Source: Chlamydiales bacterium (lineage in GTDB: Bacteria; Chlamydiota; Chlamydiia; Chlamydiales; SM23-39). Taken from it: a stretch of DNA of 33,065 nt. Of this stretch, positions 1 to 765 are shown piece after piece. Numbering within the stretch: position 1 is the stretch's first letter; each line of letters begins with the position of its first letter. The notes below the pieces were generated by a model that worked only from the letters and a program-made list of their open reading frames with translations, was not told where the DNA came from and ran no database searches. Made by a program: the position numbers and the translations under genes. The DNA lies in assembly GCA_035478555.1 (NCBI GenBank), contig DATIJO010000052.1, positions 1-33,065 on the forward strand, given 5' to 3'.

Positions 1-45
1 CGTCAAGTAGTTTTGAATCTTTTACAGCTTCGGGCCGTTGTGTTC

Positions 46-765
46 ATGAAAAGGCCGAGTAGGGAGCCTGAAAGAATTTATTCTGGCCTTCTGAATCAGA
101 AAAAAGGGGCCATGCTCTTTTCTTTTGATCCTAATGATTTCAGCGAGATCTACGATGAGATCAAAGAGGTTGGAGGAAGTGAGGAAGAATGGACGCCTAT
201 GTATTTAAAGGTGTACGCAAAAAAAACGGGCAATCAATTCTCCATAGTTGATGAAAAAGGCAGAGAGATCTTTTCTTCTTTAGGCGATGAGGCAACGAAA
301 GTTGTTCAGATCACTATGGATTTATTGAATAAACAGTCTGTAAAAGTGCAAGAAAAGGATCCGATTGAAAAGGCAATCTTGGAAGATTTAAGATTTATTT
401 CTGATTTCTTCGCCAATGAAATTGAAAAACTAAAGGGCTGGGCTGGGAAGATAAATAGAGAAAAAGCGGAAGGCCTATTAGATGCAAATGAGCCGGGCAC
501 TTATCTTTTACGAAGAGGGGATGAGTCCACTGATAATATGTTGAAGATGCTCTTTAATGACAAAGCAGAGCCTTTTCTTTATTTTGTAGTGACCTATCTG
601 AAAGAAGAAAGTCAATTAGGGGAAAAGCTTTTGATTGAATCGGGAGGTTGGTTTGTCTACAATGACATTCCTGATCTGAATTATTATATAGACCGAAAGT
701 ACACCACACTGGAGGCACTGATCGGTTCGATCAAAGAATTAAAATACCCCCTTCAAGGTTTATGA
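46..765 (+). CDS. SH2-domain-containing protein (eukaryote-like, candidate secreted effector)
   Basis: ORF-track frame 13..765 has TTG at 13 and the first ATG at 46. The frame stays open back to base 1, so the true 5' end may lie outside the window. Codons at about 439-732 read GWAGKINREKAEGLLDANEPGTYLLRRGDES...EKLLIESGGWFVYND...YTTLEALIGSI. This fits the SH2 pattern W-x-G-x-I-x-R-x-x-AE-x-LL...G-[ST]-[FY]-L-[VL]-R, including the phosphotyrosine-binding Arg, and the later h-Y-x-I / F-x-S-L-x-x-L-I elements. Confidence 0.7.
   Translation: MKRPSREPERIYSGLLNQKKGAMLFSFDPNDFSEIYDEIKEVGGSEEEWTPMYLKVYAKKTGNQFSIVDEKGREIFSSLGDEATKVVQITMDLLNKQSVKVQEKDPIEKAILEDLRFISDFFANEIEKLKGWAGKINREKAEGLLDANEPGTYLLRRGDESTDNMLKMLFNDKAEPFLYFVVTYLKEESQLGEKLLIESGGWFVYNDIPDLNYYIDRKYTTLEALIGSIKELKYPLQGL

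Follow-up and report, generated by a model that had tools for sequence, protein, structure and literature searches.

An 'exhaustive' search of UniRef and NCBI sequences found 93 bacterial SH2 domains, all of them in the Legionellales (Kaneko et al., 2018; PMC6208348), and a review of 2020 lists bacterial SH2 domains for Legionella only. Of ten Legionella SH2 proteins tested, eight were translocated into host cells (PMC6208348). The original prediction that is followed up here, made from sequence alone, had stated that bacterial SH2 domains are described mainly in Legionella; the literature that we found agrees and gives Legionellales only, and our search of it turned up nothing that connects SH2 domains with environmental chlamydiae. 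The prediction concerned the first gene of a 33,065-nucleotide (nt) stretch of DNA (contig DATIJO010000052.1), the whole of which is referred to below as the window, and proposed that the C-terminal 100 or so residues of its product match the SH2 signature. We have examined this gene, its relatives and its neighbours, and the match is borne out by Pfam, by profiles of the family searched against the PDB and by Foldseek. The C-terminal part of the protein is a true SH2 domain, and its sequence is of the eukaryotic (Src-like) type. The best explanation of the product as a whole is a two-domain cytoplasmic protein of 261 amino acids (aa), in which an orphan N-terminal domain and two linker helices precede the SH2 domain.

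The SH2 domain and its protein family

Searched by itself, the window protein matched Pfam PF00017 at residues 155–185 with an E-value of 4.7e-4 and a score of 20.6 bits, the gathering cut-off being 21, and a search of the PDB with this single sequence returned mostly SH2 chains with weak E-values. The Pfam check suggested by the original prediction was, then, marginal for this protein alone; relatives reached 9.4e-6 and a family profile 1e-8. All four close homologues matched Pfam SH2 (9.4e-6 being the best of these E-values), as did 30 of 60 diverse family members (E<0.01). Against the PDB, a profile of four sequences found SYK at 6.6e-6, and a profile of 60 sequences found SYK at 1.9e-7 and ZAP-70 at 3.6e-6, with 217 chains at E<1; among the best 60 of these 217 matches almost all were SH2 chains. 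When the profile was confined to the C-terminal domain, p85alpha was found at the value of 1e-8 just cited, 159 chains lay at E<=0.01 and the best 60 of the 159 were SH2 chains without exception. As judged from sequence, the SH2 match is significant, far beyond chance, for the family and marginal for the window protein by itself.

The predicted structure agrees. An AlphaFold2 model built from the 60-sequence alignment had a mean predicted local distance difference test (pLDDT) score of 91.3 and a predicted template modelling (TM) score of 0.74, and among the 50 matches listed when it was compared with the PDB by Foldseek all 50 were SH2 structures. Superposition of the model on SH2 structures, a check that had also been proposed, gave a matching fold, with single-domain TM scores of 0.64–0.69 at root-mean-square deviations (rmsd) of 3–4 Å. 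Single-domain fold matches included the N-terminal SH2 domain of p120RasGAP (TM 0.69, rmsd 3.2 Å), Abl (0.68), Crk (0.67), the N-terminal SH2 domain of p85, and SOCS6, those to p120RasGAP and SOCS6 being the best. Predicted elements of the domain comprise alphaA (160–167), betaB (174–178), betaC (200–209) and betaD (212–220), followed distally by a strand at 224–227 and helices at 233–239 and 244–250; the model has this strand and two helices in place of betaE, betaF and the EF loop. An extra, family-specific helix (182–191) with a loop lies in the BC region, and similarity to eukaryotic SH2 sequences stops past betaB.

The motifs quoted in the original prediction are present, namely Trp154 (nt 439–441), GKINREKAEGLL and GTYLLRRGD, the second of which contains Arg160 and the third Arg178 (Table 1). 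The YLLRRGD motif corresponds to FLVRESE, so that R178-R-G-D181 aligns with R-E-S-E of Src, and the assignment of an FLVR-type arginine to LLRR holds, since this residue aligns to betaB5. Among 148 family members Arg178 is conserved in 146, Arg160 in 138, Glu164 in 147 and Leu167 in all, and purifying selection acts strongly on the two phosphate-binding arginines. The family also has a conserved motif of its own, G-W-x-x-Y-x-D-x-P-x-L, in the betaE/betaF/EF-loop region, and Asp229 and Pro231 could form a putative roof over the phosphotyrosine pocket.

The N-terminal part of the protein had been described as having no recognisable domain, and this description stands. No match was found for it in Pfam or NCBIfam, its profile matched no sequence in the PDB, and Foldseek searches of the PDB and BFVD gave nothing better than E=0.05, the best match being to gelsolin/fragmin (E=0.064, TM 0.3). 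Gelsolin, fragmin and ADF-H were accordingly dismissed as relatives, their matches being weak (TM 0.3–0.37). AlphaFold2 nevertheless models the domain with confidence (pLDDT 84.6 when modelled alone, 91 within the full-length model). The predicted order of elements is a helix, three strands, a helix, two strands and a long helix; they include a helix at 7–24, strands at 31–39 and 45–48, a helix at 55–63, strands at 71–81 and 84–90 and a helix at 103–124. Asn13 and Gly43 are invariant across the family, and Glu130, Leu134 and Leu137 of the linker are conserved in it. Because the tandem SH2 module of SYK/ZAP-70 was ranked first by Foldseek for the whole protein (about 240 columns), we tested the N-terminal domain as a degenerate SH2 domain. 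A tandem-SH2 architecture was rejected: the N-terminal domain alone matched no SH2 structure and, by sequence, no PDB entry, and hhalign comparison of the N-terminal with the C-terminal domain gave E=0.47. Homology of the linker to interdomain A of SYK was likewise rejected, as the E-value for SYK was 1.9e-7 with the linker and 5e-7 without it.

The reading frame had been noted as open to the edge of the window, and it is. Window nt 3(r-8)+1 to 3(r-7) encode residue r of the full protein, the window version lacking the first seven codons (MAMQYDP). The identical 261-aa product (P0001) is encoded on the 106.9-kb contig CAZSSG010000002.1 of assembly GCA_964609715.1 (locus L001), and extending the sequence upstream by means of this contig places the true ATG 21 nt upstream of window base 1 (position 10001 of L001), preceded by a GGGGAG box. 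Since the window edge cuts the gene short, the TTG at position 13 that the open reading frame (ORF) finder gave as its start is an artefact.

Word-indexed searches found few relatives, and the family came to light in an exhaustive search, by HMMER, of 1.84 billion cluster representatives, with 137 proteins at E<1e-3 and 53 at E<=1e-10. It comprises about 148 sequence clusters at 50% identity, none of whose members is named and nearly all of which come from metagenome or SRA assemblies; a scan of GTDB genome contigs with the family motifs found no relative, and PADLOC and NCBIfam gave no match to anti-phage defence or to a named bacterial family. About 120 members (225–283 aa) have the two-domain architecture and about 27 (100–135 aa) consist of the SH2 domain only. 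At least two of the latter are real and not artefacts of contig ends, namely P0066, which has in-frame stops upstream, and P0155, which has a 120-nt upstream spacer. SH2-only variants of 100–119 aa were seen in the same syntenic slot as the window gene in L026 (6001–6303; GCA_964641775.1) and L012 (169–528), and since they occupy the same genomic slot we regard the SH2 domain as the core module. P0155, from L026, starts at alphaA; lacking betaA and having His at betaB5, it may be a decaying, degenerate or re-purposed copy. The sole match at E<1e-3 outside the family was P0127, a 792-aa protein with six SH2-like repeats detected by Pfam SH2 (L011, 1937–4315, on a 15.6-kb metagenome contig). It was excluded as a bacterial multi-SH2 relative because the contig is eukaryote-like, the gene adjoining Bromodomain-PHD-BAH and SET genes, and it is probably eukaryotic. 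Identity of the window protein with Wcw_0502/CTL0271, a type III effector conserved in chlamydiae, was also rejected, since that protein has a cystine knot and the window protein has no Cys.

Table 1. Positions in the window of the SH2-family gene, its parts and other genes discussed in the text
Feature	Position	Strand	Remarks
SH2-family gene	1–765	+	Codons 8–261 and stop; frame open at window edge
N-terminal orphan alpha/beta domain	1–354	+	Residues 8–125 of ~1–125; AlphaFold2
Linker, two short helices	364–423	+	Residues 129–135 and 138–148; AlphaFold2 secondary structure
SH2 domain	427–750	+	Residues ~150–257; Pfam, profile against PDB, Foldseek
Arg160 codon, AGA	457–459	+	Arg alphaA2 in hidden Markov model (HMM) alignment; Src R155 (also GRB2, p85, SYK)
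Arg178 codon, CGA	511–513	+	Arg betaB5 (FLVR arginine) in HMM alignment; Src R175 (also SYK, p85)
ATGA junction	762–765	+	SOD ATG 762–764, SH2-gene TGA 763–765; 4-nt overlap
Fe/Mn superoxide dismutase (SOD) gene	762–1397	+	211 aa; Sod_Fe_C 87 bits; Sec-type signal-peptide-like N-terminus
SET-domain ORF 1	13672–14268	+	198 aa; Pfam 61 bits
SET-domain ORF 2	14252–14866	+	204 aa; Pfam 71 bits
Pom-family outer-membrane porin	15891–16850	+	PF17251, 48.7 bits
Eukaryote-like kinase	21934–23445	-	503 aa; Pkinase 100 bits
Fic/DOC-domain protein	29478–30566	-	362 aa
PP2C-domain protein	31126–32868	-	580 aa; PP2C at residues 307–540 only

Genomic context and the superoxide dismutase gene

In more than 20 loci the SH2 gene is found at one constant place within a conserved block of housekeeping genes. 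It is preceded by genes for MgsA, a nitroreductase and an amino-acid permease, all on the minus strand, with a ProC or TPR gene immediately before it in some loci only; the SH2 gene itself is on the plus strand, and after it come a superoxide dismutase (SOD) gene (plus strand) in some loci, Tmemb_14 in some, Sua5 (+) and RDD (+). The flanking proteins are 50–66% identical to those of the window, whereas the SH2 proteins of the same loci share 24–32%, the full range of SH2-protein identity across the loci being 24–100%. The constant slot together with this difference in identity indicates a gene that is old and vertically inherited, yet fast-evolving. Present as one copy in a constant slot, with relatives only 24–32% identical, it is no island gene of recent acquisition, and a search for paralogues within the window found none.

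The overlap of the SH2 stop codon with the start of a downstream SOD gene was confirmed in the sequence, as was the proposed signal peptide of the SOD, an Fe/Mn enzyme with the leader-like sequence MKKILFVLICLANVCIA at nt 762–812. Sod_Fe_N scores 25 bits, just below its cut-off of 27, and the enzyme is closest to the Aquifex/archaeal type (Aquifex Fe-SOD 1coj, E=1.1e-27), with all four metal ligands (His, His, Asp, His) aligned in HF.., LHELYF and DVWEH. Hydrophobic leaders are also present in the SOD orthologues of L004, L006, L013, L016 and L026, and because a signal-peptide-like leader is found in most lineages we take the protein to be a periplasmic Fe/Mn SOD. The ATGA junction recurs in L004 (SH2 protein 62% identical to that of the window), L013 (27%) and L026 (SH2-only), i.e. 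in four lineages including that of the window. A fifth lineage, L016, has a gap of 16 nt between the two genes, the gap is about 100–170 nt, depending on the start chosen, in L006, L022 and L023, and in L009 one gene on the opposite strand lies between them. About ten further lineages have no SOD gene between the SH2 gene and Tmemb_14/Sua5. As the junction repeats in some lineages while SOD is missing from others, the pairing is recurrent and operon-like but dispensable; present in about half of the informative loci, the SOD is a less odd operon partner than the original prediction had held. The SOD gene converges with Tmemb_14, which ends at 1560 on the minus strand, and the intergenic region at 1398–1572 contains nested inverted repeats, whose arms are 26, 12 and 9 nt long. 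It folds as one hairpin of about 175 nt (-79.3 kcal/mol, z = -10 against shuffled sequences) and had no match in Rfam and no second copy in the window; it may act as a terminator in both directions or represent a palindromic element.

Other genes of the window were considered because the original prediction had set the SH2 domain beside a eukaryote-like kinase and several PP2C phosphatases in the same 33 kb. The kinase is present. Only one PP2C protein was found, even at E<=1. Both genes lie on the strand opposite to the SH2 gene, at distances of 21 and 30 kb, and neither was among the genes called within about 6–10 kb on each side at the loci of the homologues. In the kinase, HTDITCSN replaces HRDLKPxN and DLG replaces DFG, an SPE motif is present and the N-terminal 180 or so residues are without a match; the catalytic loop carries no tyrosine-kinase motif. 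The PP2C protein likewise has no match over its N-terminal 300 residues. In view of the distance, the absence of both from the genes called around the homologues and the non-tyrosine-kinase loop, a functional link of either gene to the SH2 gene is unsupported; the two bear on the lifestyle of the organism and are not evidence about the SH2 gene. The two SET ORFs adjoin and overlap, are histone-methyltransferase-like and are eukaryote-like candidate effectors. Orphan ORFs (144–493 aa) in 23758–24669, 25594–29313, 30596–31120 and 3381–4826, all on the minus strand, had no match in Pfam or NCBIfam, lenient thresholds included, and lie grouped in the neighbourhood of the kinase, Fic and PP2C genes. 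The Pom family has been reported from Protochlamydia and Parachlamydia only (PMC3561449), and the lineage is most likely a Parachlamydiaceae-like member of the Chlamydiota, as suggested by the Pom gene together with the SET, Fic, PP2C and eukaryote-like kinase genes.

Possible function of the SH2 protein

Our current working model is that the SH2 domain would bind a phosphorylated, most likely tyrosine-phosphorylated, peptide, with Arg178 and Arg160 holding the phosphate, as their conservation suggests, and that the N-terminal domain would pack on the SH2 domain and supply a second binding or effector surface. The SH2 protein and the exported SOD would be produced from one transcript, with termination-reinitiation at the ATGA; while the arrangement of the genes is observed directly, the coupling is what it suggests, and the SH2 protein would thereby be made as the bacterium equips itself to withstand oxidative attack. 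The weakest step of the model is the last, in which, by analogy with Legionella, the protein would be delivered into an amoebal or other eukaryotic host and dock on tyrosine-phosphorylated host proteins. We consider that a host-side phosphotyrosine reader, argued in this way from analogy, has somewhat less than an even chance of being the correct description, and the 'deliberate targeting of host phosphotyrosine signalling' of the original prediction would be an interpretation of the same kind. Points on its side are the eukaryote-like SH2 signature, the faster divergence of the SH2 protein than of its neighbours and the presence in the window of two SET genes, Fic, PP2C and eukaryote-like kinase genes and the Pom porin. 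In Acanthamoeba there are 22 tyrosine kinases and 48 SH2 proteins, with SH2 domains similar to the SOCS and RASA types. This similarity counts for the host side because the same types (RasGAP, SOCS6) are among the best fold matches of the window domain. Several observations weigh in the other direction. The window protein misses the Pfam gathering threshold by 0.4 bits and the alignment spans 31 residues, just the N-terminal third of the domain; family position 212, which is Lys or Arg in 127 of 146 members, is Gln in the window protein. The N-terminus, MAMQYDPRQVVLNLLQLRAVVFMKR, is Leu-rich and free of Ser and Thr, is conserved in the family and is predicted to be helical from residue 7, whereas type III secretion leaders are usually unlike such a sequence. 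The operon partner is a periplasmic stress enzyme and no effector, each examined locus has one SH2 copy in the same housekeeping slot, which resembles a core gene more than an effector island, and the taxonomic assignment hangs on a single marker, Pom.

Some of these same observations would suit a protein that stays in the bacterial cytoplasm and binds the bacterium's own proteins, phosphorylated on Tyr or on Ser/Thr by Hanks-type kinases, as part of a circuit, for stress or development, that is expressed along with the periplasmic SOD. Its behaviour as a core gene (one copy in the same slot of more than 20 loci, at 24–100% identity), the close operon pairing with an exported SOD that several lineages show, the structured and conserved N-terminus with no obvious secretion leader and the strong constraint on the arginine pair would all be expected of such a reader, and genes for a Hanks-type kinase and a PP2C protein are present in the genome. 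For chlamydial PknD autophosphorylation on Thr and Tyr has been reported, and for a chlamydial PP2C the removal of phosphate from phosphotyrosine. We nevertheless hold an endogenous reader to be the less likely description: the bacterial SH2 domains described in the literature that we found are effector candidates of Legionellales, none being reported to read bacterial phosphorylation, the sequence groups with eukaryotic SH2 domains, which would fit acquisition from a host for host ligands, the window kinase, 21 kb away, lacks a tyrosine-kinase loop (HTDITCSN), and the protein evolves much faster than its neighbours. Its boldest form, in which SH2 phospho-signalling is native to the bacterial lineage, the protein never leaving the cell and reading the marks of its own Hanks-type kinases in an oxidative-stress or developmental programme, appears to us doubtful; if true, the family would be a deeply rooted bacterial branch within the SH2 superfamily, paired with an orphan domain of new fold, and no borrowed mimicry.

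We think it improbable that the family uses the SH2 fold merely as a scaffold, binding a peptide or protein without reading phosphotyrosine and serving either the neighbouring SOD (in export, metal loading or regulation) or an unrelated partner. Bacterial SH2-like folds without phosphotyrosine binding do exist, an example being the 'SH2-like domain' of the LanC lanthipeptide cyclases (PMC9889658), and LeSH1a and LeSH1b of Legionella are deficient in phosphotyrosine binding (PMC6208348). The window family, moreover, has a 10-residue helix and a loop in the BC region, where a canonical SH2 domain has a short phosphate-binding loop; the Gln at residue 212 of the window protein points the same way, and P0155, with His at betaB5 and no betaA, still retains the ATGA overlap with SOD. 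On the other hand, RavO of Legionella has a BC-loop helix and yet binds phosphotyrosine tightly (PMC6208348), and SOD is missing from about half of the loci in which the SH2 gene persists. Both arginines and the R-x-G-D turn are kept in 93–99% of the 148 diverse members, which would be hard to explain otherwise than by a phosphate or other anionic ligand. That the motif match arose by chance, or that the ORF is spurious, has a vanishingly small probability: a sub-threshold Pfam score over a stretch of 31 residues is all that would favour it, and chance is excluded by the profile, structure and conservation evidence and by an ORF conserved in about 148 clusters. The host-side reader remains the description that we prefer, tentatively, for the protein.

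Comparison with known SH2 proteins

With the eukaryotic Src-type SH2 domains (p85 of PI3K, the C-terminal SH2 domains of SYK/ZAP-70, p120RasGAP, VAV2 and SOCS) the window family shares the signature W-x-G-x-I-x-R-x-x-A-E-x-L-L ... G-T-[YF]-L-[LV]-R, the alphaA2 and betaB5 arginine pair and the overall fold (TM 0.64–0.69). It differs from them in a helix-bearing BC insert of about 20 residues and in the G-W-x-x-Y-x-D-x-P-x-L motif and short helix that replace the betaE/betaF/EF-loop region, as well as in its bacterial host, its SOD operon and the absence of any attached kinase, phosphatase or adaptor module. The layout of domain, helical linker and SH2 domain is similar to that of the tandem SH2 proteins SYK/ZAP-70, but the TM score is only 0.30, with an rmsd of about 14 Å. 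The N-terminal domain that occupies the first position has a confident predicted fold without detectable relatives. That the operon with an exported SOD recurs points to a testable connection with the oxidative burst, and the family would give chlamydia-like symbionts a testable handle on the tyrosine-kinase signalling of their amoebal hosts; should the protein instead act within the bacterial cell, it would represent the first SH2 signalling module endogenous to a bacterium.

The SH2 effectors of Legionella (LeSH, LUSH, RavO and DoSH) offer the closest parallel. Like the window protein they are SH2 proteins of an intracellular bacterium of amoebae, they keep Arg betaB5, the C-terminal half of their domain diverges from animal SH2 domains and some degenerate members have His at betaB5; the helix in the BC loop of RavO is a further likeness, to the BC-region helix of the window family. 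The window family is not, however, a member of the Legionella SH2 families. It belongs to a different lineage, most likely the Pom-marked, Parachlamydiaceae-like Chlamydiota; its putative second phosphate ligand is the Src-type Arg alphaA2, where Legionella has Arg betaD6; its partner is an orphan N-terminal domain, where Legionella has a U-box, a cysteine protease or a second SH2 domain; and it is present as one copy at one syntenic position, in contrast to the patchy, multi-paralogue repertoires of Legionella. No Legionella chain was among the best 60 PDB sequence matches or the 50 fold matches listed, and secretion, if any, would need another route than Dot/Icm. The family is thus a second bacterial home for SH2 domains after Legionella, large in size and found in a different lineage of obligate intracellular bacteria, and its different pocket, partner and inheritance would show that mimicry by phosphotyrosine readers arose, or was acquired, more than once.

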